In this document: positions 11,348 to 29,684 of the stretch, in pieces
Position numbering within the stretch: position 1 is the first letter of the stretch
Layout of the letters: the number at the start of each line of letters is the position of its first letter
From: Bacteroidota bacterium
GTDB taxonomy: Bacteria > Bacteroidota > Bacteroidia > Cytophagales > Cyclobacteriaceae
Direction: 5' to 3'
DNA: 32,000 nucleotides
Assembly: GCA_018266395.1 (NCBI GenBank)
Contig: JAFEAM010000012.1
Coordinates: 263,786-295,785, forward strand
Made by a program: the position numbers and the translations under genes
The notes under the pieces: model-generated
The model's database searches: none
What the model saw: only the letters and a program-made list of their open reading frames with translations
Told to the model about the DNA's origin: nothing

Positions 11348-12670
11348 CTATCGAAGCAGTGCTCCCTTGAGTCTGAGGAGTTCGATTTCTGAGACTTTTG
11401 CGTTGTATCGGGCAGCAATCAACCGGTTATAAGCGTCTGCCAAGCTTTGTTGCGCGGTCCGCAGTTCAATGAAAGTGTTAATGCCTCTCTTGAATCCCTC
11501 CAGCATGATGGTGACGTTTTCACGCGCGAGCAGGATGGTCTCTTCTTCAATGATAAGTGTTTTTCGTGCGTTGTCGTAGTTGACGAACGCATTCTTTACC
11601 CCTACCATTACGAGGGTGCGCTGCTGCTCGTAAATGACTTTCTGCCTTTCGAGGGAAATCTTGGCCGCGCTGATCTGACGTGTCACATTCATGCCATTCA
11701 GAATGGGGACCGTTACAGACAATCCATAATTATATCCCCGTATGCGGGTGTATTTCTGTGCAGCAGGATTGACCTGAAGCATATTTTGATTCTGGTTGTA
11801 GTTGTAGGCTGAATTAAAAGCTATCACAGGAGAGCGCAGTGCCCTGGTCTCACGCAGTGCAACCTCAAATACTTCAATATTCTGTTTTGCTGAAGCCAGC
11901 TGCTGGTTGGTGTTTTCAATGTCGGTGATGATTTCATCCAAAGTCAGATGGAGATTGGTGGGAATGGTGTCGCCCACATCGTAAACTTCCGGCAAGGACA
12001 TGGCCAGGCTCCCGTTCATCTGGTCTTTAAGTTGCTGAATAAGTGTTTTTTGCGCAAGTACGGATGTGCGTATGGCATTGAGGTCGATCCTGGCCTGAAG
12101 CAATTCAGGTTTGCCTCCCGTTCCGACCTGTAATTTCCGTTCAGCCAGTTTCACACGCTCTTCACTCACCGACTGAAGTTCGCCCAGGGCCTCCAGTTGT
12201 TGCTTCTGCCTGGCAATATTGTAGTAAGTGGTCATGATGGCGGCAGCCGTGTTCATCATCTGATTTCGGACATTGATCTCGCCAAGCAAAGCGAGCTCTG
12301 TCAGTCGTTTTCTTGTCGCAAACATGCGGGTACCGTCAAAAAGCGTCCAGCTAAGTTGAACGGAACCCTGGGCATTGGTGGACTTGACACCCTCACGTAT
12401 AGTCTCTACATCTGAAAAGGTGACGTTGCGGGTATTGTTGTTGTTATTCTGATAGTTTCCCGAAGCATTCAGGGTGGGTATGAAGAGTCCGAATGCATAG
12501 CGCCGGTCATTGCCTGCCAGATCGGACGTATTTCTCAGCAACTGAACGTCATAATTCTTTTGAATTGCCGTAGACACAACTTCTTCTACGGTAACCGAAG
12601 GCTGCGCCAGTGCAGATACGGCACACAGGAGAAAGAGCAAGCAAATAAATACCTGACTAATGAACTTCAT
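11348..12670 (-). CDS. TolC-family outer-membrane efflux protein
   Basis: The ORF runs 11348..12745. The ATG at 12670 gives the signal peptide 'MKFISQVFICLLFLLCAVSALAQ'. It has two coiled-coil/beta-barrel repeats typical of outer-membrane factors, and it is the last gene of the MFP-RND-OMP operon. Confidence 0.85.
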   Translation of the reverse strand: MKFISQVFICLLFLLCAVSALAQPSVTVEEVVSTAIQKNYDVQLLRNTSDLAGNDRRYAFGLFIPTLNASGNYQNNNNNTRNVTFSDVETIREGVKSTNAQGSVQLSWTLFDGTRMFATRKRLTELALLGEINVRNQMMNTAAAIMTTYYNIARQKQQLEALGELQSVSEERVKLAERKLQVGTGGKPELLQARIDLNAIRTSVLAQKTLIQQLKDQMNGSLAMSLPEVYDVGDTIPTNLHLTLDEIITDIENTNQQLASAKQNIEVFEVALRETRALRSPVIAFNSAYNYNQNQNMLQVNPAAQKYTRIRGYNYGLSVTVPILNGMNVTRQISAAKISLERQKVIYEQQRTLVMVGVKNAFVNYDNARKTLIIEEETILLARENVTIMLEGFKRGINTFIELRTAQQSLADAYNRLIAARYNAKVSEIELLRLKGALLR

Positions 12671-15600
12671 AGGTAAGTTCTTTCTGCGGCTCCGCCATCT
12701 GCTCCTCAAAATTGATATGCTTCCTCTTTCTTGAGAGGTAAGCATACATGGCAGGAATGACGAAAAGGGTTAGAACAAGGGAGAACAGGATTCCGCCTAC
12801 AATGACAATCCCAAGCGGGATTCTGCTGGTTGAGGCATCGCCCAGCGATAATGCCAATGGAAGCGAACCCAATGCCATGGCAAGACTGGTCATAAGGATG
12901 GGACGAAGCCTAAGCCTGCTGGCTTCCAGCACTGCGTCAATCTTGTTGAGACCTTCTTCACGTTTTTTGTTTGCGAATTCCACAATGAGGATTCCATTTT
13001 TCGTCACTAGACCAATCAACATGATCATCCCGATCTCGCTGAAAATATTGAGCGTTTGCTTGAACACGAATAGCGAAAGGAAGGCGCCAAAGATGGCCAG
13101 CGGTACGGTGAACATGATAATCAGCGGATCAACAAAACTCTCAAACTGTGCTGCCAGGATGAGATAGATAAGTACCAATGCAAGAATGAAGGCGAAGGAG
13201 GTATTTCCTGAACTCTCAGCAAAGTCACGGGAAGATCCGGCTAATGAAGTGTTGAAAGTGTCATCCAATACCTTATCTGCGATCTCACGCATGGCATTGA
13301 TGCCGTCGCCAATGGTTTTGCCGGGTGCAAGACCCGCAGAAATGGTTGCAGATTTGAAGCGGTTAAAGTGATAAAGAGAAGGAGGGGTTGTGGATTCTTC
13401 GAGGGTTACCACATTATCAATGGACACAAGTTCTCCTGACGATGTCCTCACGTAAAGCCGCTTCAGATCATCAGGATCATCCCTGTCCATTCTGGTAACT
13501 TGTCCGATGACCTGATACTGCTTTCCTTCTTTGGTGAAGTACCCAAATCGCAGGTTACTGTAGGCAAGTTGCAAAGTCTGCGAGATGTCCTGTACGCTAA
13601 TGCCGAGTTGGGTGGCCTTGAGACGGTTAATCTTGACCAGTAGTTCCGGTTTGTTGAATTTTAGGTCCACATCAACACTCTGCAAGACTGGATTATCCTG
13701 GGCCATCTGCATGAATTTGGGTATCACTGACTTCAACTTTTCAAAGTCGTTATTCTGGATAACAAATTGTACCGGTTGTCCACCGCGGCGGTTCACCGCG
13801 ATGGTCTGCTCCTGGGTGATGAATACTCTTCCCTCCGAAAAGAGAGGAAGGTATTTATTGAGATCATCGACGATTTGCTGCTGAGAGCGGTTCCTGTCTT
13901 TGCGGTCAACGAGATTAACCCTTACTGATCCGGTGTTGGGTGAGCCGCTTGCACCACCAAAGGCAGGAGCTGTATTCGAAATGACCGTCCTGATTTCGGG
14001 GACGGAATCCATGACGAACTGGGTCAGCCGTTCTACATATTTGTCCATGAAATCGTAGGAGGTTCCCTCCGGGGCGATGGGATTGAGTCGCAGTTGATTC
14101 CGGTCTTCCAGTGGTGCAAGTTCCTGCTGGATGCCGATGCCGATGAAGTAGGTTCCGGTCAAACACACCGCAACGATCACCAAGGCGAGCCACCTTACTT
14201 TCATAAAACGTCCGAGGGTGTGTTTATAGAAATTCTCCATTCCTATGAAGAAGGGTTCCGTCACATGGTAGAACCAGGAGTGGCTGTGGTTTGAGCGTGT
14301 AAGTTTTACGCTTAAAACAGGAGTCAATGTGAGCGAAACGAACGAGGAGATGAGTACTGCGCCGGCCACTACAATCCCGAATTCGCGGAAAAGCCGGCCA
14401 ACAAATCCTGGAAGGAATACTACCGGCAGGAACACCACCGCAAGGGTGATTGAGGTGGAGACAACGGCAAAGAAGATTTCCTTTGATCCCTCAATGGCCG
14501 CCTGGTACTTGTTCATCCCTTTCTCCAGCTTCTTGAAAATATTCTCAGTTACCACAATACCATCATCCACCACAAGACCTGTGGCCAGGACGATGCCCAG
14601 CATGGTGAGCACGTTCACAGAAAACCCACTGAGGTACATGATGAAGAAAGTGGCAGTAAGCGATACTGGGATATCAATCAGCGGCCGGATAGCGATGATA
14701 AAGTCGCGGAAAAAGAGATAGATGATAAGAACCACTAGAACGAAGGAGATGGCCAGTGTCTCTTCCACTTCGGTGATGGCACGCTTGATAAACTTAGTCT
14801 GATCAGTCGATACATCCAGTTTGATATCGGCGGGCATTTCCTTTTGTACCTGATCAAGGCGTCTGAAAAATTCATCAGCAATCGAGACGTAATTGGCGCC
14901 AGGCAGTGGAATGATACCCAGGGCGATCATTGGCACACGGCTTTCGCGAAGGACGGATTCTTCATTTTCCGGGCCCAGAACAGCTTCTCCAATATCCCTG
15001 ATCCTGATATTCCCGGTCGAAGTGGCTTTCACGATCACGTTCTTAAAGTCTTCCTCCGTGTACAGCCTGCCAAAAGTTCTTACTGTTAATTCGGTGGCGT
15101 TGCCTGCAATTTTTCCTGATGGCAACTCAACGTTTTCACGGTTTAAGGCTTGCTGGACATCCAGCGCTGTGAGGTTGTAGGCACTCAGTCTTGAGGGATC
15201 AAGCCATATCCTCATTGCGTACTTCTTCTCACCCAGGACATTGACGCTGCTCACCCCCGGGATGGTCTGCATGCGCTCTACCAGCACATTGGTAGCATAT
15301 TCGGTTAACTGCAGTGCATTCCTTGTATTGCTTTGCACGGTCATGCTGATGATGTAGTCCGCATTGGCATCAGCCTTAAATACCACGGGAGGCGCAGTTA
15401 GATCCTGAGGAAGCAGGCGCACAGCCTGTGAAACTTTGTCCCGCACATCATTGGCGGCTGCCTCAAGGTCGACACCCAGATTGAACTCGACGTTGATGCT
15501 GCTTCGGCCCACGGAGGATGAGGAAGAGATATTGCGAATACCCGCAATGCCATTGATTGCCTTTTCCAGAGGTTCAGTGATCTGTGATTCTATGATATCT

Positions 15601-15767
15601 GCATTGGCCCCTGAGTAGGTAGTGCTCACGTTGATGTTGGGAGGGTCAATGGCAGGATAATCGCGCACACCCAAATAGGTAAATCCTATAGCTCCGAACA
15701 ATACAAGCAATATGTTCATCACGAAAGTGAGAACCGGGCGCCTGATACTGAGTTCTGAGATATTCAT
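12657..15767 (-). CDS. RND efflux transporter permease (AcrB/HAE1-like)
   Basis: 1036 aa with a 12-TM, two-large-periplasmic-loop architecture. The N-terminus 'MNISELSIRRPVLTFVMNILLVLFG' is typical. Its stop overlaps the TolC-like start by 14 nt. Confidence 0.95.
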   Translation of the reverse strand: MNISELSIRRPVLTFVMNILLVLFGAIGFTYLGVRDYPAIDPPNINVSTTYSGANADIIESQITEPLEKAINGIAGIRNISSSSSVGRSSINVEFNLGVDLEAAANDVRDKVSQAVRLLPQDLTAPPVVFKADANADYIISMTVQSNTRNALQLTEYATNVLVERMQTIPGVSSVNVLGEKKYAMRIWLDPSRLSAYNLTALDVQQALNRENVELPSGKIAGNATELTVRTFGRLYTEEDFKNVIVKATSTGNIRIRDIGEAVLGPENEESVLRESRVPMIALGIIPLPGANYVSIADEFFRRLDQVQKEMPADIKLDVSTDQTKFIKRAITEVEETLAISFVLVVLIIYLFFRDFIIAIRPLIDIPVSLTATFFIMYLSGFSVNVLTMLGIVLATGLVVDDGIVVTENIFKKLEKGMNKYQAAIEGSKEIFFAVVSTSITLAVVFLPVVFLPGFVGRLFREFGIVVAGAVLISSFVSLTLTPVLSVKLTRSNHSHSWFYHVTEPFFIGMENFYKHTLGRFMKVRWLALVIVAVCLTGTYFIGIGIQQELAPLEDRNQLRLNPIAPEGTSYDFMDKYVERLTQFVMDSVPEIRTVISNTAPAFGGASGSPNTGSVRVNLVDRKDRNRSQQQIVDDLNKYLPLFSEGRVFITQEQTIAVNRRGGQPVQFVIQNNDFEKLKSVIPKFMQMAQDNPVLQSVDVDLKFNKPELLVKINRLKATQLGISVQDISQTLQLAYSNLRFGYFTKEGKQYQVIGQVTRMDRDDPDDLKRLYVRTSSGELVSIDNVVTLEESTTPPSLYHFNRFKSATISAGLAPGKTIGDGINAMREIADKVLDDTFNTSLAGSSRDFAESSGNTSFAFILALVLIYLILAAQFESFVDPLIIMFTVPLAIFGAFLSLFVFKQTLNIFSEIGMIMLIGLVTKNGILIVEFANKKREEGLNKIDAVLEASRLRLRPILMTSLAMALGSLPLALSLGDASTSRIPLGIVIVGGILFSLVLTLFVIPAMYAYLSRKRKHINFEEQMAEPQKELTYEVH

Positions 15768-15776
15768 AAATGCTGC

Positions 15777-16829
15777 CTATTTGACAACAAGCTTGGATAT
15801 TTTCAATTTGGATCCCGGACGAATGGCCATCAAGCCTGTAGTGATCACCGTATCGCCCGGCTGAAGTCCTTTTACAATCTGTACATAGGAGGAATCCCTG
15901 ATACCTGTTTGTACAATTCTGAATGCAGCGCTATCCTTCTTCATTACGATTACGCGCTTGTTTCGCGCCTCAGGAATGATGGCCTGGCTTGGCAACATGA
16001 TCGCTGAGGAAGTTTTTCCCAGGCGAAGGTTCACCTTCGCAAAAACTCCGGGAACCAGTTCTGCATGCTTTTCCTGCACAATAGCCCGCACTTTCAAGGT
16101 TCGGGTGGTGGGCTCTATGTTGCCTTCTGTGGCCATAACAACCGCATGATGATCGAATTGACCACCATCCACACGGAAGGTAATATCATACCCTTTTGTG
16201 ATACTCTTGGCATATTTTTCAGGAACAGAGAACTCCAGTTTCAGTTTACTCACATCCCTCAGCGTCGTTATTATGTCGTTGGGTGAAAGATATGCCCCGG
16301 GACTCACGGAGCGCAAACCGATTTCACCCTCGTAAGGCGCACGGATTTCAGTCTTTGAAACGGCAATTTTTGTGGTCTGAATGTCGGCCTTCAAATTGTC
16401 CACGGCCAATGCACTCAAATCAAAATCCTGCTGACTGATACCCTGAATCTGCAACAATTCCTTTTGCCTTTCGACAGTCTTGATCGCGATCTGCAACTGA
16501 ACCTGCAACTTGCGCAGCTGAGCCTGCAGATCCTCGTCAAACAATTTGGCAAGCAGATAGCCCTTGGGAACGATGCCTCCTTCTGGAATATTCAATTGGA
16601 TAATCCGTCCGCTTACTTCAGATTTGATTTGAGTCGCTTCTGCAGCGAGCAAACTGCCTGGCACTTCCACATCTTCGCTCATGGCGCTCAATTGAACACG
16701 GAATGCTTCCACTATTATCGGACCACGGGGACGATTGCCCGGCGTCCGTTCAGACGCACCCTTTTTCTCGCAGGCAGCCAGTAGCATAAGAAATGCGAAA
16801 AAGAGCCATATGGACCGTTTCAGGGGCAT
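15777..16829 (-). CDS. RND efflux periplasmic adaptor (membrane fusion protein)
   Basis: The ORF runs 15777..16898. The ATG at 16829 gives the lipoprotein signal 'MPLKRSIWLFFAFLMLLAAC'. It has a coiled-coil hairpin plus beta-barrel pattern, and it ends 9 nt before the RND permease start. Confidence 0.9.
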   Translation of the reverse strand: MPLKRSIWLFFAFLMLLAACEKKGASERTPGNRPRGPIIVEAFRVQLSAMSEDVEVPGSLLAAEATQIKSEVSGRIIQLNIPEGGIVPKGYLLAKLFDEDLQAQLRKLQVQLQIAIKTVERQKELLQIQGISQQDFDLSALAVDNLKADIQTTKIAVSKTEIRAPYEGEIGLRSVSPGAYLSPNDIITTLRDVSKLKLEFSVPEKYAKSITKGYDITFRVDGGQFDHHAVVMATEGNIEPTTRTLKVRAIVQEKHAELVPGVFAKVNLRLGKTSSAIMLPSQAIIPEARNKRVIVMKKDSAAFRIVQTGIRDSSYVQIVKGLQPGDTVITTGLMAIRPGSKLKISKLVVK

Positions 16830-17074
16830 AAAGTGATGTTCAGGGGCGCAAATTTCTCTCCTTAACTTTAGAAATGCACATCCTGGTTGCAAATACATGC
16901 CAGGCGGTAAATGGGGATGACTTGTGGTTAAAGATCCGCTGGGCGCAGGCCTTGATTTCGTCCTTATTTGAGACTGGCCTAATTGGACAATTTGAGATGG
17001 GGAGATATTCCTAATGCACTGCCGTTGATGTTACCTGCTCTGATGATAATTCTGAAAGAACTAACAGTGTAAGA

Positions 17075-19438
17075 CTACATGGACTCGATCAGGAGTGGAG
17101 TGTCGGCCTCGTCAAGTTTGCTCGCAGGATTACTTTCATTTTCACTCTCACCTGGCGGCAGTTGATTTACTTCTTTCAATACGGTCCTTCTGGTAAGTAT
17201 CAACCATATCAGAGGCAAAACTCCGCCCGTGACAAAGATGGCGCCGCCGATGATCCTCAACCATGTGAGGGCTTGAAATGCTTTACTGTCGATAAAGGCA
17301 CTGCTTCGGGCAAACCATAATCCATGATCAAGCACAGCATTGAATTGAAGAATTCCCGCCGGGAACAAGTCAAGGAGTACCATAAGCAACAGACCGGCAT
17401 TAAGCGACCAGAAGGATAAGCTCACAATCCTGGACGGCCAACTTTCGGATCTGGACAGCAGCTGACAACAGAAAAGCATTCCGGCCAGTGAAAGGTTGCC
17501 GTACACTCCCATTAGCGCGGCGTGTCCATGATTGACGGTGAGATAAGTCCCGTGCTCAAAGTAATTCGCAATAGGAAGATTGATGATAAATCCCATTAGT
17601 CCCGCTCCAAAGAAATTCCAGAAGTTCACACCGACCAGGAAGAGAAAAACGGATGAGAAACCGAACGCATTATTTCCTCCGCGGGCAGTTTCCAATTGTA
17701 ACGGCAAACGACTGAAGCGCCAGGCCTCCAGCGTAAGCAATATCAATGGTACGACCTGTAGAGTTGAGAACACCGAGCCCAATGCCATGGTGAATACCGG
17801 TTTGGCATTCCAGTAGAAGTTATGAGAAATCCCCAGCAGTCCTGAGCCCAGAAAAAGCAGGCATGCGAGATAGATCACCCGAATGGCTGCGCGGGCACTC
17901 ACCAGTCCCATCAGGACCATGAAGTATCCGATCAGGACAGTGGTGAATACTTCAAAAAACGCTTCTGCCCACATGTGAACGACCATCCATCTCCAGAAAT
18001 CTGCAATAACAAAATTGGTATCAGGTGTGAACATGAACGCGGAGCAGAGGAGGATCAATATGCTGACGATCGAGTAAACCAACCAGTTAGGCAAGGCCCA
18101 GGGTTGATGAAGTTTCATCACCGGCCTCAGTCCCCGGTACAGGGTAAAAGCCCAAAGACAGAAGATTGCATAGAGGGTAATCTGCCAGATTTTGCCTGGT
18201 TCCAGGTATTCCCAGCCTTGATGGCCAAACCAATACCAATTGCTCCCAAAAAGCCCTTTGGGGCCACCAAAAATGCCAACCAGCCCCCCAATAACCAACA
18301 CCACGACGAGCCAGAAGATCAGGTTAACCAAGGTCTTTTGATGCCGGGGCTCCTTGGGTGAGAGCATGGGAACAACAAAAAGCGATGCGCCAATCCAACA
18401 ACCTGAAATCCATAGCAACGAAAGTTGAACATGCCAGCTCCTGGTAATTGTTACAGGTAAAACTTTTGAAATGTCTAACCCCCAGAAATTTACGAAGCCG
18501 ACAAAATCGTGTACCGTGAGAATGCCTGCAAGTACTTGCAAGCCAAAAAGCAGGATGGCGGCGTAAAAGAACTTGTATGTCGCCTTTTGCGTGTCTGTCG
18601 GATGGAATCGACTCACGCTCTCCAGTGTGAACAAAGGGCTGGCATCGCGGGTAAATGTTTCATTATCCAGTTTCTCCAGTCGCCCGTGGTAGAAAAGAAC
18701 AACGCCAAGTCCAAGAATAAGGCCGAAGGAACCTATGATGCTCCAAATGATAACCGCTTGACTTGGCGAATTGCCTGCTATCGGGTCGTAAGGCCAATTA
18801 TGTGTATAGCTGTAATCTTTGCCTGGTCTTTCAGTGCCGCACACCCACGCACTCCAGTAAAAGAATGAAGCAAGCGCCCGCAGATCGTTCTTATCGGTGA
18901 GATGGTGAGCCGGACTGAAGGAAGCTTTTGTATTGCCTGTGAAAACGCCGCTGTAGTAATCCACCAATTGTTCAGCGGCGTACACCTGGGCATCATTGAG
19001 ATTGACAGTATTGGTTCTTTCGTCAAAGTGATTCTCCTTGATTTCTTTTTTTACCCGGTTGTTGATGCCGTAGCGTTGCCAGGTCTGGTCACCAGCCTCT
19101 GTAGCTATTGACTTGAGGTAATAGTCCGCCATGAATTCAGCAACACGGTGGAGGGCATCAGCTGAAAAATCCGGACCTCGATTTGCGCCGTCCCCAAACA
19201 TGCTTCCATATTCCATCAGGGCATGTTCCTGAAATACCTGCTGGCCCTTACGTATATCAGCCTGTGTGATGACCAGGTTCTTGTCTGGCCCGGCATAGTC
19301 TGGAACCGGGGGAGCCTCCGTATAGGTATGGAGTCCAATCATGAAGACTCCGGCAATACTGATGACAAAAATGACGGTGAGAGGGATCCACCAATTCCTG
19401 GGATTGAGCAGAAAATCGATAAACCGGTAGTTTGCCAT
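17075..19438 (-). CDS. norB: quinol-type nitric-oxide reductase family protein (qNor/NorZ-like) with atypical, Nod-like active-site residues
   Basis: 787 aa from the ATG at 19438. It has an N-terminal TM helix plus a periplasmic domain of about 280 aa without CxxCH, followed by a heme-copper-oxidase core. That core carries 'RSWH', 'VVHMWAEAFFEVF' and 'VNHGHAALMG'. Unusually, the conserved His-His pair reads 'SHNFYW' and 'LEVVPL' reads 'LQVVPL' (see findings). Confidence 0.9.
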   Translation of the reverse strand: MANYRFIDFLLNPRNWWIPLTVIFVISIAGVFMIGLHTYTEAPPVPDYAGPDKNLVITQADIRKGQQVFQEHALMEYGSMFGDGANRGPDFSADALHRVAEFMADYYLKSIATEAGDQTWQRYGINNRVKKEIKENHFDERTNTVNLNDAQVYAAEQLVDYYSGVFTGNTKASFSPAHHLTDKNDLRALASFFYWSAWVCGTERPGKDYSYTHNWPYDPIAGNSPSQAVIIWSIIGSFGLILGLGVVLFYHGRLEKLDNETFTRDASPLFTLESVSRFHPTDTQKATYKFFYAAILLFGLQVLAGILTVHDFVGFVNFWGLDISKVLPVTITRSWHVQLSLLWISGCWIGASLFVVPMLSPKEPRHQKTLVNLIFWLVVVLVIGGLVGIFGGPKGLFGSNWYWFGHQGWEYLEPGKIWQITLYAIFCLWAFTLYRGLRPVMKLHQPWALPNWLVYSIVSILILLCSAFMFTPDTNFVIADFWRWMVVHMWAEAFFEVFTTVLIGYFMVLMGLVSARAAIRVIYLACLLFLGSGLLGISHNFYWNAKPVFTMALGSVFSTLQVVPLILLTLEAWRFSRLPLQLETARGGNNAFGFSSVFLFLVGVNFWNFFGAGLMGFIINLPIANYFEHGTYLTVNHGHAALMGVYGNLSLAGMLFCCQLLSRSESWPSRIVSLSFWSLNAGLLLMVLLDLFPAGILQFNAVLDHGLWFARSSAFIDSKAFQALTWLRIIGGAIFVTGGVLPLIWLILTRRTVLKEVNQLPPGESENESNPASKLDEADTPLLIESM

Positions 19439-19465: not shown

Positions 19466-19491
19466 AATAAAGGACAAGACAGTCCCTTATT
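19466..19491. promoter_or_regulatory. 26-bp palindromic candidate operator, AATAAAGGA-N8-TCCCTTATT
   Basis: The arms match as an inverted repeat at 8/9 positions (10/11 if extended to 19465..19492). It lies 27 nt upstream of the norB-like ATG, in the 146-bp divergent region shared with the tnaA-like gene. A near-identical copy is at 25806..25831. Confidence 0.45.
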
Positions 19492-19539
19492 ATCCTGATC
19501 ATATTGACTTAAATCAGGTGTACAGGCAACCTAATGGGA

Positions 19540-19547
19540 TATTTTTG
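19540..19547 (+). promoter_or_regulatory. possible Bacteroidota -7 promoter box (TATTTTTG = TAnnTTTG)
   Basis: This is an exact match to TAnnTTTG, 37 nt upstream of the tnaA-like ATG. I found no TTTG -33 element at the usual spacing, so support is weak. Confidence 0.3.
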
Positions 19548-19584
19548 CTACCCGGCCCATTGTCCCGGACCGGATCTAAAGATT

Positions 19585-20970
19585 ATGACGGAAAAGAAAC
19601 TAAGAACCCTGGCAGAGCCATTCAGGATCAAGATGGTGGAGCCACTCAAGATAACCACGGAAGAATACAGGGAGGAAGTACTCAAAAAGGCTGGATTTAA
19701 TCCTTTTTTGCTCAGGTCGGAGGATGTTTTTATTGACCTTCTGACGGACAGCGGTACGGGAGCCATGAGTGACCGTCAATGGGGCGGGATGATGATCGGC
19801 GATGAAAGCTATGCCGGCGCCAGAAGCTGGGAACACCTGGAGTCTGTAGTGAAGGAATTGACAGGCATGGCACATGTGCTTCCTACTCATCAGGGACGTG
19901 CCGCAGAGCGAATACTTTATGGGATACTGGGAGGCAAGGATAAAGTCTTCATCAGCAATACACACTTTGATACTACCCGCGCAAACATTGAGTTCACAGG
20001 CGCCAATGCTCTTGATATCATTCCGCCTACATCAAGAGATCCGGAAGTGGATCTCCCATTCAAAGGCAACATTGACACGGAAGAACTAGAGCGGTTGATC
20101 GTGAAGCATGGTTCTTCACAAATAGGCGCTGTGGTTATGACGGTCACAAACAATTCTTTTGGCGGTCAACCCGTAAGCATGCAGAATATGAAGGAGGTGC
20201 GTACTATTTGTGACCGCAATAAAGTATTTCTGGTTATTGACGGATGTCGCATCGCCGAGAACAGCTACTTCATTAAACATCGGGAGAATGGCTTTGCGGA
20301 TAAGACCTATGAAGAGATAGCCAAAGAGATGCTTAGACTAGGTGATGCATTCATTATGAGTGCAAAGAAGGATGGGCTGGTAAATATGGGAGGACTGCTC
20401 ACTTTAAAAGATGACGAGCTGAGCAGGAAATGCACGAACCTTCTGATTATTTCTGAAGGATTCACCACCTACGGTGGCTTGTCAGGTCGCGATATGGAGG
20501 CCATCGCCATCGGGCTGAAGGAGGTCTTCGATCCGGATTATTTACACTACCGGATCCGCAGTACTGCGTACCTGGGCGAGCATTTGCGCGCCAAGGGTGT
20601 ACCGGTGCTTTGGCCCATCGGCGGTCACGCGGTGTACATAGACGCCAAAAGACTTTATCCGAATATTCCTGTGAACGAATATCCCGGCCAGGTGCTGGTG
20701 TGTGACTTGTACGTGAAGGGAGGGATCAGGTGTGTAGAAGTGGGGAGCGTCATGTTCGGCAAATACGATGAGCGGCACCAACTGATCCCGGCTCAAAACG
20801 AACTGGTGCGGTTGGCGATTCCCCGCAGGGTATATACACAAAGTCATATCGACTATGTGCTTGATGTGTTCGATGATATTCTGGAACTGAGAAAACAGAC
20901 CCGTGGATGCCGGATCACCTATGAACCGCCTTTCCTCAGACATTTTACTTCGCAATTTGAAAGACTGTAA
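19585..20970 (+). CDS. tnaA: tryptophanase-like beta-eliminating lyase (PLP-dependent)
   Basis: The ORF runs 19534..20970, and the ATG at 19585 ('MTEKKLRTLAEPFRIKMVEP') matches the family N-terminus. The PLP-Lys motif is 'MSAKKDGLVNMGG'. Tryptophanase-type specificity positions are present: 'THFDTTR' (Asp) and C-terminal 'LRHFT' (His). Confidence 0.85.
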   Translation: MTEKKLRTLAEPFRIKMVEPLKITTEEYREEVLKKAGFNPFLLRSEDVFIDLLTDSGTGAMSDRQWGGMMIGDESYAGARSWEHLESVVKELTGMAHVLPTHQGRAAERILYGILGGKDKVFISNTHFDTTRANIEFTGANALDIIPPTSRDPEVDLPFKGNIDTEELERLIVKHGSSQIGAVVMTVTNNSFGGQPVSMQNMKEVRTICDRNKVFLVIDGCRIAENSYFIKHRENGFADKTYEEIAKEMLRLGDAFIMSAKKDGLVNMGGLLTLKDDELSRKCTNLLIISEGFTTYGGLSGRDMEAIAIGLKEVFDPDYLHYRIRSTAYLGEHLRAKGVPVLWPIGGHAVYIDAKRLYPNIPVNEYPGQVLVCDLYVKGGIRCVEVGSVMFGKYDERHQLIPAQNELVRLAIPRRVYTQSHIDYVLDVFDDILELRKQTRGCRITYEPPFLRHFTSQFERL

Positions 20971-20983
20971 ACGATAATTGACT

Positions 20984-22372
20984 ATGAAAAGAACTGTTCA
21001 GAAGAAATCATGGGCTGAGCCTTACAAGATGAAGATGGTTGAACTGCTGAATGTGACTAGCCGTCAGCAGCGGGCGAGAGCAATCAAGGATGCTGGATAC
21101 AACACTTTTCTTCTCCGGTCGGAGGATGTGTATATCGATCTGCTTACTGACAGTGGTACCAACGCCATGAGCGATCGGCAATGGTCAGCGTTTATGGTAG
21201 GTGATGAAGCTTATGCAGGGAGCGCGAGTTTCTATCGGATGGAGGCGGCCATTCAAAAACACTACGGTTACAAGTATGTCATTCCTACGCACCAGGGTCG
21301 CGGGGCAGAGAACATTTTATCCAAAGTGATGATCAAGCCGGGTGATGTGATACCGGGTAACATGTATTTCACCACTACCCGGCTCCATCAAGAACTGGCA
21401 GGCGGTAAATTTCACGATATCATAATTGATGAAGCCCACGACCCAGGGAGCGAACATCCTTTCAAGGGTAATGTTGACCTGAACAAACTGGCAGCCATCG
21501 TAAAGAAAGTGGGGGCTAAGAAGATTCCCTATGTAAGCATAGCCACCAATGTGAATATGGCGGGTGGCCAGCCAATCAGCATGAAGAACCTGAAGGAATT
21601 ACGCGCCTTCACTAAAAGGCACGGCATCAAAATTATTCACGATATGACGCGTGTAGCGGAGAATGCGTACTTCATTCAGCAAAGAGAAAAAGGTTACGAG
21701 AAAAAGAAGATACGTGACATCGTTCGGGAAATATGCGACAATACAGATGGAGCTACCATGAGTGCGAAGAAGGACGCCCTTGTGAATATTGGCGGATTCA
21801 TGGCTACCAACGACTGGAATGTGTACGAAGAAGCCCGGAACCTTGTCGTAGTCTATGAGGGTTTGCATACCTATGGCGGTTTGGCCGGCAGAGATATGGA
21901 GGCCATCGCCGTAGGAATCGGGGAAAGCCTAAACGATGAGCATCAACATGCCAGGGTGGGACAGGTGGAATACCTTGGCCATCGCATGGAGTCTTTTGGG
22001 GTCCCTATTGTGAGACCAATAGGTGGACATGGAATTTTTGTTGATGCCAAAGCTTTCCTGCCACATCTCACCCAGGATCAGTTCCCTGCTCAGACACTGG
22101 CCGCAGAGATTTTTGTTGACTCTGGCGTGCGAACTATGGAGCGGGGAATTGTCTCAGCGGGTCGCAAGCCCGATGGGACCAACTACTATCCTAAGCTCGA
22201 ACTTGTAAGGTTTACCCTGCCCAGAAGGGTTTACACGCAGGCTCATATGGACGTCGTCGCCGAATCAGCCGGATCTGTCTTTGAAAGAAGGAAGAAGATC
22301 AAAGGAATGAAAATGGTTTACGAACCAAAGTACCTGAGATTCTTTCAGGCAAGATTCGAGATGATCAAATGA
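20984..22372 (+). CDS. tpl: tyrosine phenol-lyase-like beta-eliminating lyase (PLP-dependent)
   Basis: It is very close to the remembered Citrobacter TPL sequence: 'AGYNTFLL.S.D.YIDLLTDSGTNAMSD.QW', 'GNMYFTTTRLHQE' (Thr at the phenol-binding position), PLP-Lys 'MSAKKDALVNIGG' and C-terminal 'LRFFQARF' (Phe-Phe). It starts 13 nt after the tnaA-like stop. Confidence 0.85.
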   Translation: MKRTVQKKSWAEPYKMKMVELLNVTSRQQRARAIKDAGYNTFLLRSEDVYIDLLTDSGTNAMSDRQWSAFMVGDEAYAGSASFYRMEAAIQKHYGYKYVIPTHQGRGAENILSKVMIKPGDVIPGNMYFTTTRLHQELAGGKFHDIIIDEAHDPGSEHPFKGNVDLNKLAAIVKKVGAKKIPYVSIATNVNMAGGQPISMKNLKELRAFTKRHGIKIIHDMTRVAENAYFIQQREKGYEKKKIRDIVREICDNTDGATMSAKKDALVNIGGFMATNDWNVYEEARNLVVVYEGLHTYGGLAGRDMEAIAVGIGESLNDEHQHARVGQVEYLGHRMESFGVPIVRPIGGHGIFVDAKAFLPHLTQDQFPAQTLAAEIFVDSGVRTMERGIVSAGRKPDGTNYYPKLELVRFTLPRRVYTQAHMDVVAESAGSVFERRKKIKGMKMVYEPKYLRFFQARFEMIK

Positions 22373-22399: not shown

Positions 22400-23401
22400 C
22401 TATAGCCACCCCATTTTCCTGTACCACTCTGCCGTGTGGATCAAGCCTTCCTCGAGAAGGTAGGTTGGCTTTTGTCCGGAGTCGTTCCAAAGCTCGCTGC
22501 TGTCGCACAGCCAGTTGGCACTGCTGATCTCCTTAAGTTTGTCAAGGTTAAGAAACGGCATTCTCCCGAAGGGGCGTTGAATGAATTCATTGATTCCGAC
22601 GGCCGCCTTCAGTGGTGTGAGCGGAAAACTTATGCGAAAGGTCGTTCTGCCCAAAGCCTTCCGGATAATTGCACCCAGAACCATTTTGTCATAAAACTGG
22701 CCATCCGATGCAAGATATATCGTATTCCGTCCTTTGTCTGCCAGGTGCAAAACAGATGCGGCAAGATCTTCCACATGAATCATCGAAATCATCTGACGAT
22801 GCCAGCCTAATGCTGGCTCAAAACCGCCAGCGATCATTCTGAAGAACTGAAGAAAATCCCTGTCACGCGGGCCATAAACGGCAGTCGGTCGGATAATAGT
22901 GACCGGAAAGGCACCTAATGACTCCAGATACTGCTCAGCCATCAGTTTGCTGCGTCCATAGGCAGATACTGGTTGGGGTCTGAAATCGACCTGTATGGGT
23001 TGATAAGTTGAAGGATCCCCGGGACCCATGGCTGCCAGCGAACTGATCAGTACAAACCGATCAGGTGGCTGTTGCTGTGCTGCCAGGATTCCTGCCAGGT
23101 TCCGTGTTGTTTCCACATTCACCCGTACAAAAGCCTCCTTCCGTTTTGCGTGTGTAATACCGGCATTATGGATCACATAGTTGATGCGGCCGTATTTTTC
23201 AATCAGCGCATTCATCTGCAGACTTAGCGCGGCTGGATCTTCAAGATCCAGTAACTCTACGTGAACATTTTCAGATGGAATCCACTCCCGTGAACTTGTC
23301 TTCCTCAATACCGCAATGGTTTCCCAACCCAGCTTTAGTGCCTGGTCAATAAGATGACTGCCGATGAAGCCGCTGGCGCCAGTAATGAGTACTCGTTTCA
23401 T
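22400..23401 (-). CDS. extended-SDR NAD(P)-dependent epimerase/dehydratase-family reductase (CerR-like / dehydrocapnine-reductase-like candidate)
   Basis: The ORF runs 22400..23557. The ATG at 23401 gives 'MKRVLITGASGFIGSHL' (Rossmann GxxGxxG), and the catalytic 'YGRSK' (YxxxK) is present. It is the last gene of the three-gene operon, 19 nt after the GNAT-like stop. Confidence 0.85.
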   Translation of the reverse strand: MKRVLITGASGFIGSHLIDQALKLGWETIAVLRKTSSREWIPSENVHVELLDLEDPAALSLQMNALIEKYGRINYVIHNAGITHAKRKEAFVRVNVETTRNLAGILAAQQQPPDRFVLISSLAAMGPGDPSTYQPIQVDFRPQPVSAYGRSKLMAEQYLESLGAFPVTIIRPTAVYGPRDRDFLQFFRMIAGGFEPALGWHRQMISMIHVEDLAASVLHLADKGRNTIYLASDGQFYDKMVLGAIIRKALGRTTFRISFPLTPLKAAVGINEFIQRPFGRMPFLNLDKLKEISSANWLCDSSELWNDSGQKPTYLLEEGLIHTAEWYRKMGWL

Positions 23402-23420
23402 GAACGTCGAGGTTGCCTTT

Positions 23421-24542
23421 CTACAGACTCTTGATGTAACAGCGTCTGCGCTTATGACGCCGGGCATCAAAATGATCCCAGAAAGATTGTACCAGCACGT
23501 TGTTTTCAAGTTCAGGATTAGATTCCACCTCACGAATACCAAAGGAGCGGTACGCATTCGCCACTTCTTCCATTAATACTGCGTTTACCCCTTTTCCCTG
23601 AAGATCCTTTCGAACGGCCACCAGATACAGATCGGCCACGGTATTTTTTTTCATCGCTTTCAGCAGGTGGATAAAACCGAAGGGAAAAAGTTTCCCTTTT
23701 GATTTCTGAAGTGCATCTGACAACGAAGGCATGGTTACGCCAAAGGCAGCAAGCTTTCCGTGCCTGTCAAGAATCAGGGGAACAAATGCCGGCAGGATAA
23801 ATGAGAAATATTGTTCCGTATAGTACTTGATCTGTCGATCGGTAAGGGGTACCACGCCATAAAGTTCGGCGTAGGCGGAGTTGACCAGTTCAAACAACTC
23901 TTTGGCGTATGGCAGAATGTCCTTGGCTTTCCTGGCTTTCACCACGCTGAGTCCAAAGCGTTCCCGCACTACGGCAGCCAATCTTGATACCTTTTCGGGC
24001 ATCTGTTTGGGCATTTTGATTCTGAATTCTACCCAATCAACCGCCTTGGTATAACCGAGCCGCTCCAGGTGAGCAGGGTAATAAGGGAAATTGTAGATGG
24101 TCGCTAACGTACCCACCTGGTCAAATCCCTCCACCAGCATGCCTTCGTGATCAAGGTCTGTGAAGCCAAGCGGACCATGGACGGCGGTCATGTTTTTTTC
24201 CCGGGCCCAGTCTTCTACTTTTTCAAGAAGTAATTCTACAATCTCCTGCTCGTCTTCAAAATCAAGCCAGCCGAACCTCATGTATGGGTTTTTCCACTTT
24301 TCAATGTAGGCGTGATTAAGAATGGCCGCCACTCGTCCAACAACGCTGCCATCCTTTCTAGCAAGCCAGTAACGGGCTTCACAGTAATCAAATGCCGGAT
24401 TTTTGTCCTTGCGAAGGGTATTGATCTCGTCAAAGCGGAGGGGCGGAACAAAGCAATAATTGTTCTTATAGAGAAGGTACGGGAACTCAACAAAGTCCCT
24501 TAGTTGTCGTTTAGTCTTAACTTCCTCAATGACCAGGCCCAT
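23421..24542 (-). CDS. GNAT-fold acyltransferase-like protein (candidate lipid N-acyltransferase)
   Basis: 373 aa. The C-terminal region has a GNAT motif-A-like acyl-CoA pocket, 'LVAVRKDLQGKGVNAVLMEEV'. The start overlaps the upstream alpha-oxoamine synthase stop by 17 nt. The functional call is tentative. Confidence 0.6.
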   Translation of the reverse strand: MGLVIEEVKTKRQLRDFVEFPYLLYKNNYCFVPPLRFDEINTLRKDKNPAFDYCEARYWLARKDGSVVGRVAAILNHAYIEKWKNPYMRFGWLDFEDEQEIVELLLEKVEDWAREKNMTAVHGPLGFTDLDHEGMLVEGFDQVGTLATIYNFPYYPAHLERLGYTKAVDWVEFRIKMPKQMPEKVSRLAAVVRERFGLSVVKARKAKDILPYAKELFELVNSAYAELYGVVPLTDRQIKYYTEQYFSFILPAFVPLILDRHGKLAAFGVTMPSLSDALQKSKGKLFPFGFIHLLKAMKKNTVADLYLVAVRKDLQGKGVNAVLMEEVANAYRSFGIREVESNPELENNVLVQSFWDHFDARRHKRRRCYIKSL

Positions 24543-25773
24543 GCGGTTGTAACTCCCCTACAATATCCAGTTTTTTGGCAATAACATGGATCTTGTCAAT
24601 GGCTTGTTCAATCTGTTCGCGGGTATGCGTTGCCATCAGGCTGAACCTGATGAGGGTGGCATCCTCTGCCACCGCAGGAGCTGTGATTGGATTTACAAAT
24701 ACACCTTCTTCCAGAAGTTGATTTGCGAGCATGAATGTCTTCTCATTATTGCGCACGTAGATGGGAATGATGGGTGTACATGTATTGCCGGTATCAAATC
24801 CAAGATCATGAAAAGCATGCAGGGCAAAATGGGTGTTACTCCAAAGCTGCTGGATTCTTGCCGGCTCGTGTTGAATGACCCTCAGGGCCGCAAGCGCACT
24901 GGCGGCGGCAGCAGGAGACATGCTGGCGCTGAAAATGAGTGAACGTGCCTGATGCTTAATGAAGTTGATTGTAGGCTGATCGGCTGCAATGAACCCTCCG
25001 ATGGATGCAAGTGACTTGCTGAAGGTGCCCATAATAAGATCAGTCTCATCCGTCAGACTGAAGTGTGAAGCGGTACCCCTGCCTTCAACACCGATTACAC
25101 CCAGGGAATGGGCATCATCTACCATGATGGTGGCCCCATAGTGTGCAGCGAGGCGAACCAATTCGGGCAGAGGCGCGATGTCCCCATCCATGCTGAATAT
25201 TCCATCCACGACAATCAGGATGGTTACATCCGGTTCAATGTTGCGGAGTATCCGCTCCAGAGCATTCATGTCGTTGTGACGAAATTTGACAGTACGCGCG
25301 AAGGAAAGTCTGCTGCCTTCGAGGATGCTGGCATGATCGAGCTCATCCAAGACCAGATAGTCATGCCTCCCCAGCAAACAGGGGATGGCGCCGATATTCA
25401 CCTGGAATCCGGTGCTGAAAACTACAGCAGCTTCCTTGCCCACAAATTCTGCCAATGCTTCTTCCAGTTCGATGTGTATGTCAAGGGTTCCGTTCAGAAA
25501 CCGTGAACCTGCGCACCCTGTTCCATACTTCCGGATGGCGGCAGCCGCGGCGGCTTTTACCTCAGGGTGATTAGTTAAACCGAGGTAGCTGTTGGATCCG
25601 AACATCAATACCTCCTTTCCCCCTATCCTCACCGATGTATCCTGATCTGATTCGATCACCCTGAAATATGGATACAGTTGCTGTGCCTTCAATCGTTGGG
25701 GAACGTCAAAGGCTCGTACCTTGTCATGAAGGGGATTATGTCTGCGGTTAACGGGATGGTGAGCAGTGTCCAT
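24526..25773 (-). CDS. alpha-oxoamine synthase, serine palmitoyltransferase-like (or cysteate-fatty acyltransferase-like)
   Basis: 415 aa. AOS motifs are 'GSNSYLGL', 'FSTGFQVN', 'DELDHASI', 'SMDGD', 'VDDAHSLG' and PLP-Lys 'GTFSKSLAS'. By memory, the overall pattern aligns well with Sphingomonas SPT. No biotin or threonine-degradation genes are adjacent. Confidence 0.85.
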   Translation of the reverse strand: MDTAHHPVNRRHNPLHDKVRAFDVPQRLKAQQLYPYFRVIESDQDTSVRIGGKEVLMFGSNSYLGLTNHPEVKAAAAAAIRKYGTGCAGSRFLNGTLDIHIELEEALAEFVGKEAAVVFSTGFQVNIGAIPCLLGRHDYLVLDELDHASILEGSRLSFARTVKFRHNDMNALERILRNIEPDVTILIVVDGIFSMDGDIAPLPELVRLAAHYGATIMVDDAHSLGVIGVEGRGTASHFSLTDETDLIMGTFSKSLASIGGFIAADQPTINFIKHQARSLIFSASMSPAAAASALAALRVIQHEPARIQQLWSNTHFALHAFHDLGFDTGNTCTPIIPIYVRNNEKTFMLANQLLEEGVFVNPITAPAVAEDATLIRFSLMATHTREQIEQAIDKIHVIAKKLDIVGELQPHGPGH

Positions 25774-25805: not shown

Positions 25806-25831
25806 AATAAAAGATGAAAGTATCCTTTATT
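25806..25831. promoter_or_regulatory. 26-bp palindromic candidate operator, AATAAAAGA-N8-TCCTTTATT
   Basis: The arms match as an inverted repeat at 8/9 positions. It lies 32 nt upstream of the AOS ATG (25773). It matches the norB-upstream site in 16 of 18 arm positions with the same 8-nt spacer. Confidence 0.45.
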
Positions 25832-25997: not shown

Positions 25998-26450
25998 TCA
26001 TCTGGATGAACGGGGGCTGTAGTTCTTCAGGTAAGCTTTTCCCTGCAGCACATCCCGGGCGGCGGACTGAATGCTGGTGTCCTTGAACACTTCTTTTAGC
26101 TTGTCTTTATAGAGTTTCACTTCGTGGTGCACAGGACAGGGAAAGGAATCGGAACATTTCTTCAGTCCAAGCGCACAGGAGCTTAACACATCATCACCAT
26201 CAATGGCCTTCACGACAGCATTGATCGGGATAGGCTTGGCTTTCGGATCCAGAAAGAAGCCGCCATTCGGTCCTTTAATGGACGAGATGATTTTCTTTCT
26301 TACAAGTGTCTGAAGAATCTTGGCGGTAAAGGGTACCGGTGAATCAATGGCACGGGCAATTTCTGGAATTCCTAGCCTGGAGCCATCTATGCTTTTCATG
26401 GCTATGAAGAGTACTGCACGGATCGCGTATTCGCAGGCCTTGGTGAACAT
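25998..26450 (-). CDS. Rrf2-family transcriptional regulator (NsrR/IscR-like, 3-Cys cluster motif)
   Basis: 150 aa. The N-terminal winged helix 'MFTKACEYAIRAVLFIA...GIPEIARAIDSPVPFTAKILQTLVRKKIISSIKGPNGGF' is typical of Rrf2 proteins. Three cysteines, C92-x6-C99-x5-C105 ('SSCALGLKKCSDSFPCPVHH'), sit where Fe-S ligands lie in NsrR/IscR. Confidence 0.9.
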   Translation of the reverse strand: MFTKACEYAIRAVLFIAMKSIDGSRLGIPEIARAIDSPVPFTAKILQTLVRKKIISSIKGPNGGFFLDPKAKPIPINAVVKAIDGDDVLSSCALGLKKCSDSFPCPVHHEVKLYKDKLKEVFKDTSIQSAARDVLQGKAYLKNYSPRSSR

Positions 26451-29008: not shown

Positions 29009-29094
29009 TACCCGGGACGGGAGTTGAACCCGTACAGCCATTACTGGCCACAGGATTTTAAGTCCTGCGTGTCTACCAATTCCACCACCCGGGC
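29009..29094 (-). tRNA. tRNA-Leu (anticodon UAA)
   Basis: I folded the reverse complement by hand. Acceptor GCCCGGG/CCCGGGU; D arm GUG..CAC; anticodon stem CAGGA/UCCUG with loop CUUAAAA; long variable arm GGCCAGUAAUGGCU; T arm ACGGG-UUCAACU-CCCGU; discriminator A73. CCA is not encoded. Confidence 0.9.

Positions 29095-29610: not shown

Positions 29611-29684
<74 letters not shown>

Follow-up and report, generated by a model that had tools for sequence, protein, structure and literature searches.

A homologue of quinol-dependent nitric oxide reductases from the putative NO dismutase branch, and a conserved palindrome upstream of its gene, in a Cyclobacteriaceae genome

The window analysed here, a stretch of 32,000 nucleotides (nt) from a Bacteroidota bacterium (Cyclobacteriaceae; contig JAFEAM010000012.1, positions 263,786-295,785, forward strand), carries on its minus strand a gene whose product, hereafter the query, is related to the nitric oxide reductases that depend on quinol (qNORs). 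Judged from its sequence, the query is a full-length and ordinary member of the putative nitric oxide (NO) dismutase (NOD) branch of the qNORs. We propose, at a probability of roughly 0.7, that it is a qNOR-derived enzyme of the NOD clade, controlled by an upstream palindrome and an Rrf2-family regulator, which consumes NO in a stress role. The gene is one more member of a known family and not a new kind of enzyme; what is new here is the palindrome at the NOD promoter, the predicted haem-copper oxidase (HCO) folds of two membrane proteins, unkA and unkB, encoded in the same window, and the quinol-site residues that the subclade of the query has retained.

The coding sequence runs from an ATG at 19438 to a TAG stop at 17077..17075, as established by translation and a scripted coordinate check (Table 1). 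A longer open reading frame (ORF), with a TTG start at 19477, begins within the upstream palindrome; since the NCBI record of the identical protein (MBS1977302.1) also has 787 amino acids (aa), the ATG was taken as the start. That record belongs to a metagenome-assembled Bacteroidota genome, in which the protein is encoded on a contig of 363 kb. An N-terminal transmembrane (TM) helix is followed by a cytochrome-c-like periplasmic domain that has no haem (residues 51-217), and residues 286-734 form an HCO core of 12 TM helices. The protein matched Pfam COX1 (5e-50) and NorB_cytochrome_c-like (1e-48). No CxxCH motif was found in it, meaning that it has the qNOR architecture without haem c, and a scan against NCBIfam returned no model at E 0.001. 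The NCBI product name is 'cbb3-type cytochrome c oxidase subunit I', and homologues at JGI are called 'nitric oxide reductase subunit B'. An earlier note, made from the letters of this DNA, had described a 787-aa protein of qNOR architecture; the translation, the Pfam matches and a full-length alignment to qNORs agree with this, and every motif and codon position that it quoted was recovered by the scripted check.

We then compared the query with proteins of solved structure by a phmmer search of the chains in the Protein Data Bank (PDB). The Geobacillus (Gs) qNOR, 3AYF, was matched with an E-value of 1.5e-157 (query 17-748 against 21-762), and the Alcaligenes (Ax) qNOR, 6QQ5, was aligned end to end (2.4e-130). 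As a whole, qNOR chains scored from 1e-113 to 1e-158 and the NorB chains of cytochrome c-dependent NO reductases (cNORs) from 1e-26 to 1e-34, and no oxidase chain, CcoN included, was among the PDB matches at E <= 0.001. Residues 21-762 of the Gs qNOR were rebuilt from the phmmer output and added to a MAFFT alignment of 110 sequences. Both alignments gave the same pairs: H488, E492 and E496 of helix VI with Gs H508, E512 and E516, H539 and N540 of helix VII with H559 and H560, Q561 of helix VIII with E581, and, at the quinol site, H310, G314 and G732 with H328, E332 and D746. The local alignments to 3AYF are free of gaps in helix VI ('vhmwaeaffevf' against 'IHLWVEGIFEVF'), in helix VII ('gllgishnfywn' against 'GVIGIGHHYYYN'), in helix VIII ('vfstlqvvpl' against 'VFSALEVIPL') and in both parts of the quinol site ('vhdfvgf' against 'AHYYTEP', and 'wlriigga' against 'LLVRAVPDT'). 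A misalignment, with an intact His-His pair or Glu lying elsewhere, was looked for as the outcome that would overturn the earlier note; these gap-free alignments to 3AYF and 6QQ5, together with the multiple alignment, rule it out.

The changes at the metal site are thus those that the earlier note had read: His-Asn in place of the helix-VII His-His pair, which supplies two ligands of the non-haem iron (FeB), and Gln in place of the helix-VIII Glu. N540 is Asn in all 92 NOD-type sequences of the alignment and His in all 18 qNORs; since most of the former come from loci chosen by the His-Asn (HN) motif itself, as described below, their uniformity at this position is by construction, which weakens this count as support for our proposal. 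Position 561 is Gln in 92/92 and Glu in 18/18. Five positions discriminate NOD-type sequences from qNORs, H213 (Gs N234), W452 (L472), N540, A545 (G565) and Q561, and at each of them the query has the NOD residue; a further signature, nearly invariant across the NODs, is D311-F312. On the other hand, the ligands of haem b and haem b3 (H336, H637 and H639), two His ligands of the non-haem metal (H488 and H539) and both helix-VI glutamates have been kept, as the earlier note had also stated for the haem ligands and the helix-VI motif; these His residues are invariant in the clade, and E571 (Ax E569) is kept as well, like the Asn of NFWN. In the Ax enzyme, Glu559 (Gs E581, Pseudomonas cNOR E280) and Glu490 hold a water molecule, and Glu559 is the proposed terminal proton donor (PMC6713497), so that a Gln at this place removes a protonatable group.

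Were these substitutions peculiar to one genome, an error of sequencing or a chance event could account for them. The 120 nearest homologues in a collection of 5.8 billion sequences, 64-92% identical to the query and found in Cyclobacteriaceae, Chitinophagaceae, Sphingobacteriales, Ferruginibacter and Asinibacterium, rule this out: G[IV]SHNFYW is present in at least 119 of them, and STLQV[VI]PL and HMW[AV]EAFFE are present in all 120. A filter-free HMMER search of 1.84 billion representatives of clusters at 50% identity gave 150 best matches, from which 21 full-length sequences (>=700 aa) were aligned. Among these, besides the query, only P0121 (from a metagenome-assembled genome (MAG) of Planctomycetota, 54% identity) and P0122 (marine, 41%) combine HN, Gln and no Asp. 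The other 19 all have His-His and Asp and none exceeds 39% identity; all but one have Glu at both 561 and 639, and two read Glu in the column of H639.

A wider sample was obtained by scanning GTDB, one genome per species, with a DNA back-translation of G[IVM]xHNFYW. At least 120 loci were listed (cited below by L numbers), of which just over half are from Bacteroidota and the others from Planctomycetota (including Scalindua and Brocadiaceae), Proteobacteria, Acidobacteria, Methylomirabilota, Rokubacteria and other groups. All 82 full-length ORFs taken from them have Gln at 561 and lack Asp at 732, and in ORFs selected by HN only these two features are independent evidence. Matches to the motif in two viral contigs (L001 and L002) were discarded as chance ORFs of 85 aa. 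In two Burkholderiaceae MAGs (L115 and L011) the motif lies in stop-to-stop ORFs of 1588 and 1148 codons, which could be N-terminal fusions or merely reflect stop-poor upstream DNA of high GC content.

A neighbour-joining tree (109 sequences, 92 HN and 17 qNORs; 740 columns, Kimura distances, 100 bootstraps), which counts for less because a distance method alone was used, recovered all 92 HN sequences as monophyletic against the 17 qNORs with 100% bootstrap. The query falls within a Bacteroidota clade of 26 members (100%), and when the Allomuricauda/Maribacter/Saprospiraceae type is included, the wider Bacteroidota clade has a support of 93%. Cultured members of the 26-member subclade are Flavisolibacter ginsengisoli DSM 18119 (63% identity to the query) and Chryseolinea sp. 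H1M3-3, while identity to the canonical qNOR representatives aligned is 27-38%. At the level of the clade, the NO-dismutase-like reading of the earlier note thus stands, and the phylogeny for which it had called does not nest the query within the canonical qNORs.

These data bear on two alternatives. The first is that the protein is what the public annotation says, either a canonical qNOR or a subunit of a cbb3-type oxidase; besides the product names, the Pfam matches to COX1 and NorB_cytochrome_c-like would agree with it. However, the His-His pair, Glu581 and the Asp of the inner quinol (Qi) site are all absent, the query lies outside the qNOR clade, and no NCBIfam model recognized it. Furthermore, the best PDB matches are qNORs and not oxidases, and neither ccoO nor ccoP was found in the window. 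A canonical qNOR or CcoN identity is refuted at the level of sequence by HN, Q561, G732, the PDB matches and the lack of cco genes, and we give this alternative next to no weight. The second is that the protein derives from a qNOR but is a relic without activity, or an NO sensor or scaffold without a catalytic function. The loss of a metal ligand and of a catalytic glutamate would fit it, as would the fact that the activity of the family members is a proposal only. Against this, full-length ORFs are kept across many phyla with invariant haem ligands, E492, E496, N540 and Q561, the same replacement is fixed in 92 of 92 sequences, unlike what is seen in relics, and the promoter carries a dedicated, conserved operator (see below). 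We therefore regard a relic or a sensor as very improbable; from the comparison of sequences, the NOD-type ORF is selectively maintained.

The quinol site was then considered. In the cryo-EM structure of the Ax qNOR, two qNOR-specific residues, His305 and Asp724, form hydrogen bonds with the quinol at the Qi site, and a second, outer site lies at Trp718/Arg720, residues that cNOR also has; the Persephonella qNOR with the equivalent His, Arg or Asp mutated is inactive (PMC13087809). The Qi Asp is present in 18/18 qNORs and in 0/92 NOD-type sequences. At the outer site, Arg728 is present in all 89 NOD-type sequences that cover the column and Trp726 in 74/92, and the equivalent of H310 is kept in 46/92, the whole subclade of the query among them. 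Residues 310/314/732 differ between subclades, reading H-G-G in that of the query, N-D/N-A in the Allomuricauda/Maribacter/Saprospiraceae type, T/I-R-G in the marine gamma/alpha type and E-x-G in Methylomirabilota and Acidobacteria. The earlier note had supposed two acidic residues of the quinol site to be missing. Both are indeed gone (G314 and G732), but H310 and W726/R728 remain, and from its sequence the pocket in the query subclade is only partly lost. Since His310, Trp726 and Arg728 are kept, one should not assume for this subclade that there is no entry for electrons.

What chemistry these residues would support is a matter of two readings. By its alignment with the qNORs, the protein retains both haems (b and b3); of the three ligands on the non-haem metal, two are still His and one is Asn, with Glu492 nearby. 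Gln replaces the proton-donor Glu, and the Asp that hydrogen-bonds quinol beside haem b is absent. The first reading is an electron-independent disproportionation of NO (2 NO to N2 + O2, or by way of N2O + O2). We hold it tentatively, at somewhat below an even chance, because the coupled and invariant loss of the Qi Asp and of the proton-donor Glu across all the phyla is hard to explain otherwise. The second reading is a modified NO reductase, which would make N2O from NO with electrons delivered by a non-canonical route (e.g. H310, a partner protein or the outer site with W726/R728), the Asn and Gln changes tuning metal affinity or proton handling. In its favour, the query has kept H310, W726, R728, E492, E496, E571 and the ligands of low-spin haem b, and regulation of the NO-stress type would suit a reductase that detoxifies no less than a dismutase; detoxification has also been suggested elsewhere (Elbon 2024). 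Yet the Qi Asp separates the qNORs from the NOD-type sequences without exception, Glu581 is invariant in the former and replaced in all of the latter, mutation of the Qi-residue equivalents inactivates the Persephonella enzyme (PMC13087809), and so strict a coupled replacement over many phyla suggests a changed chemistry rather than tuning. A modified reductase is therefore, in our judgement, unlikely, if by no means negligible.

Looking at the aligned regions upstream of the NOD genes, we found a conserved 22-bp palindrome with the consensus TWAAGGAY-N6-RTCCTTWA. In the window, where it reads TAAAGGACAAGACAGTCCCTTA, 30 bp separate it from the NOD ATG, and it lies within the 95-bp region between this gene and a divergent tryptophanase-like gene. 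Its end is 26-60 bp upstream of the NOD start in 14 related loci (26-40 bp in 13 of them) and the window. As a Bacteroidetes-type -7-like box resembling TAnnTTTG comes after it, the palindrome overlaps the NOD promoter; a scan for sigma-70-type promoters, which does not cover Bacteroidetes promoters, found none. A second copy, TAAAAGATGAAAGTATCCTTTA, is located about 35 bp upstream of the ATG of a serine palmitoyltransferase gene (position 25773, minus strand), so that at one mismatch or fewer the window has 2 sites against 0.01 expected. The Algoriphagus and Saprospiraceae loci have a one-base-shorter variant, TTAAGA-N8-TCTTAA. In Algoriphagus aquaeductus (L050), the palindrome precedes an Rrf2 gene by 41 bp and a gene with ScdA_N and hemerythrin domains by 14 bp; the latter is of the YtfE/DnrN type, classical nitrosative-stress genes, and a homologue of unkB comes next after it. 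Neither the region upstream of unkA in the window nor the loci with nos clusters were found to have the operator. Five other loci (L097, L015, L065, L010 and L081) carry, in place of the AAGGAY type, another palindrome, TATGA-N6-TCATA, about 60-75 bp upstream of NOD, which suggests a second regulator in some lineages.

The candidate for binding the operator is the product of the Rrf2-family gene of the window, which has three cluster-type cysteines (Table 1) and could be an NO-sensing repressor. The earlier note had placed this gene and two unknown membrane proteins next to NOD. They are indeed present in the window, but five genes and 6.5 kb separate them from NOD, which is flanked instead by an RND efflux operon and a divergent pair of lyase genes. 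We compared the window proteins by tblastn with 8-kb genome blocks around other NOD genes, taken from the listed motif loci. In 27 loci the block has an Rrf2 homologue, which in many of them is the direct neighbour of NOD, and comparative genomics ties the regulator, as far as gene order can, to the NOD gene despite the distance in the window. Taken together, the palindrome, the Rrf2 gene and the ytfE-like links point to an NO-responsive control and a role in detoxification. Under the mechanism that we propose, NOD would be transcribed from the promoter overlapped by the palindrome; the locus-linked Fe-S Rrf2 protein would most likely bind this site and let go when NO attacks its cluster. The regulon would be small and would probably include the divergent lyase genes through the shared 95-bp region. 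The enzyme would consume NO in the nitrosative-stress response of a heterotrophic Bacteroidota bacterium and would not feed an intracellular hydrocarbon or methane oxygenase, since the operator and the NO-stress context favour removal of NO over an 'intra-aerobic' mode in which an oxygenase is supplied with O2.

The NsrR regulons of Proteobacteria and Firmicutes are similar in that an Rrf2-family, Fe-S-type regulator is linked to NO genes (ytfE/dnrN type and NorB family) and a palindromic operator lies over the promoters. We consider by analogy that the Rrf2 protein would have an NsrR-like mode of action without being an NsrR orthologue.

Several points weigh against our proposal, in addition to the HN-based choice of loci and the distance-based tree. 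No NOD has been purified or assayed to date (PMC11549561, 2024; PMC13386854, 2026), so that the remark of the earlier note on the activity still holds, and the O2 production of 'Candidatus Methylomirabilis oxyfera' (M. oxyfera) has no biochemical tie to the NOD protein. The 6.5 kb between the Rrf2 and NOD genes counts against a functional link in this genome. The Rrf2 protein reaches no NCBIfam equivalog cut-off, its score with the NsrR equivalog NF008240 being 29 bits for a cut-off of 182, and the palindrome differs from the proteobacterial NsrR motif, gATGyAT-N5-ATrCATc (Rodionov 2005, PMC1274295); it is thus from context that 'NO-sensing' is argued. Finally, H310, W726, R728, E492, E496, E571 and both haem b ligands are kept in the query subclade, so that the protein may still receive electrons and protons, and the argument that it cannot reduce NO is weakened.

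NODs as a family have been described before. Putative NODs were defined by the change of one coordinating His into Asn and of a nearby catalytic Glu into Gln and by the lack of a proper quinol site, and the flavobacterium Muricauda ruestringensis was already among them (Ettwig 2012, PMC3413370). In a GTDB scan with a NOD hidden Markov model, 162 genera from 16 phyla had the gene, and over half of the NODs belonged to Bacteroidota, in four subclades (Ruff 2024, PMC11549561). The rarity that the earlier note had implied is not borne out by such a well-populated, published family with a Bacteroidota majority. Rrf2-type regulators have been reported beside nod in Bacteroidota (Cecembia), with NO detoxification as a suggested role (Elbon 2024).

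With the putative NODs of M. oxyfera (DAMO_2434/2437) and strain HdN1 the query shares the qNOR architecture without haem c (PMC3413370), the change of the third FeB His into Asn (N564 in M. oxyfera numbering), the change of Glu into Gln and the lack of the Qi Asp. These two were represented in the alignment and the tree by a sequence from a Methylomirabilota MAG (L082), which falls inside the 92-member HN clade with the query. The Methylomirabilota type is about 43% identical to the query and has lost the equivalent of His328 (Glu at 310), whereas the query has H310. Regulators of the LuxR type are reported for M. oxyfera and HdN1 (Elbon 2024) and not of the Rrf2 type as for the query, whose locus has no pmo or alkane-oxidation context. 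The NODs of Muricauda ruestringensis, Algoriphagus and Sediminibacterium belong to the same phylum-level clade as the query (93%), with Rrf2 as a frequent neighbour; it is often adjacent there, unlike in the query genome. As for the solved qNORs (3AYF, 6QQ5 and the Neisseria enzyme 6FWF), the query shares their fold, length, haem ligands, the HxxxE...E of helix VI and the outer-site Trp/Arg, and differs by His560 to Asn, Glu581 to Gln, Glu332 to Gly, Asp746 to Gly and Gly565 to Ala.

The RND efflux operon begins 176 bp past the NOD stop on the same strand, and no terminator-like site was found in this gap. On the other side of the divergent lyase genes, a cluster of serine palmitoyltransferase, GNAT-like and SDR genes looks like one for the synthesis of bacterial ceramide. 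In the tblastn comparison, lyase genes were found in five NOD blocks (L057, L108, L079, L020 and L075), and the SDR, GNAT-like and serine palmitoyltransferase genes in 5, 6 and 2 blocks, respectively (e.g. L018, L047 and L049). No oxygenase system and no nir, nor or nos genes were found in the window. GC content is even over it (0.44-0.50), and therefore nothing in composition marks the NOD gene as a recent import. Elsewhere, the window encodes an 808-aa fusion of a Mur ligase with a complete alanine racemase (6902..9328, minus strand; Pfam Mur_ligase_M and Ala_racemase_N/C) and two tRNAs (29009..29094 and 29612..29684, minus strand; Rfam RF00005, 59 and 66 bits).

Table 1. Coordinates in the window of the NOD-type gene, its key residues and the neighbouring features.
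Feature	Position	Strand	Remarks
TolC-like outer-membrane factor gene	11348..12745	-	RND efflux operon, downstream of NOD
AcrB-type permease gene	12657..15767	-	RND efflux operon, downstream of NOD
Adaptor gene	15777..16898	-	RND efflux operon, downstream of NOD
NOD-clade qNOR homologue, coding sequence, 787 aa	17075..19438	-	Translation; Pfam; identical to MBS1977302.1
W726-L-R728-I-I-G-G732	17243..17263	-	Outer-site Trp/Arg kept; Qi Asp (Gs D746, Ax D724) to Gly
H639 (VNHGH, 635-639)	17522..17524	-	Haem ligand, from alignment
H637 (VNHGH, 635-639)	17528..17530	-	Haem ligand, from alignment
Q561, codon CAG (STLQVVPL, 558-565)	17756..17758	-	Homologous to Gs Glu581, Ax Glu559, Pseudomonas cNOR Glu280
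H539-N540, codons CAT AAC (GISHNFYW, 536-543)	17819..17824	-	Homologous to helix-VII His-His FeB ligands (Gs H559/H560)
H488-MWA-E492-AFF-E496	17951..17977	-	Helix-VI motif, retained
H336 (RSWH, 333-336)	18431..18433	-	Low-spin haem b ligand, from alignment
H310-D-F-V-G314	18497..18511	-	Quinol-site His kept; Gs Glu332 to Gly
Palindromic operator (putative), TAAAGGACAAGACAGTCCCTTA	19468..19489		NOD/tryptophanase-like intergenic region
Tryptophanase-like gene	19534..20970	+	Divergent from NOD
Tyrosine phenol-lyase gene	20978..22372	+	TIGR02618, 728 bits
SDR gene	22400..23557	-	Ceramide-type cluster
GNAT-like gene	23421..24542	-	Ceramide-type cluster
Serine palmitoyltransferase gene	24526..25773	-	NF047600, 667 bits
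Second palindrome copy, TAAAAGATGAAAGTATCCTTTA	25808..25829		Upstream of serine palmitoyltransferase gene
Rrf2-family regulator gene	25998..26450	-	Pfam Rrf2 1.9e-22; Cys92/Cys99/Cys105
unkA, 354 aa	26668..27732	+	From ATG 26668 (alternative start 26653); divergent from Rrf2 gene
unkB, 391 aa	27716..28891	+	Adjacent to unkA

The two membrane proteins of the earlier note, unkA and unkB, form a conserved adjacent pair, each with about a thousand homologues called 'hypothetical protein' in Bacteroidota. Scans of Pfam and NCBIfam matched no family for either of them, NnrS included. AlphaFold2 (AF2) models built from alignments of 37-38 sequences reached high confidence scores (pLDDT) of 93.6 and 90.5, and Foldseek against the PDB returned for both only chains of HCO subunit I, at 9-14% identity. 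For unkB these were CcoN of a cbb3 oxidase (3MK7_A; TM-score on the query, TMq, 0.76, E 7e-6) and NorB (3O0R_B; TMq 0.78); for unkA, NorB (4XYD_A; E 9e-3, TMq 0.60) and a cbb3 chain (TMq 0.69). Both proteins are thus predicted to have folds like that of HCO subunit I. HCOs carry their haem and CuB ligands in helices II, VI and X, and the invariant His residues of unkB (H39/H41/H43, H172 and H310) lie, by helix order, in these same helices; no helix-VII His pair was found in it. Paralogy of unkA and unkB was undetectable by BLASTP, with an hhalign probability of 1%, and a profile of unkB found no chain among the PDB sequences.

In three of four genomes examined (L125, L126 and L127), the unkA/unkB pair abuts a clade II nosZ cluster. 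Homologues are also found near NOD, Rrf2 or ytfE-like genes in L013, L050, L097 and L040, and in the tblastn comparison unkA was present in 4 NOD blocks and unkB in 4; as judged from gene order, the link with NOD is associative only. The confident AF2 models that best match CcoN and NorB, together with the invariant His residues of unkB, would argue that the two proteins are unrecognised and extremely divergent members of the HCOs, and the nos clusters that adjoin them in three genomes, as well as the place of unkB after the ytfE-like gene behind the operator in Algoriphagus, that they act in Bacteroidota on nitrogen oxides together with NOD and clade II NosZ, e.g. as a partner or a module for electron entry. 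We consider this idea doubtful. If it were true, unkA and unkB may supply the electron module that a NOD devoid of a quinol site, or NosZ, lacks.

If NOD makes O2 and N2 from NO, there would be a fourth way in which O2 arises biologically, and the emission of N2O would be bypassed. Fifteen years on, this activity is still a proposal, and the query is one of hundreds of NODs in Bacteroidota, several of them in cultured strains. The operator would tie the Bacteroidota NOD to an NO-stress regulon, which favours detoxification and offers a handle for induction; cultured carriers of the same subclade with the same operator exist, Flavisolibacter ginsengisoli DSM 18119 among them.

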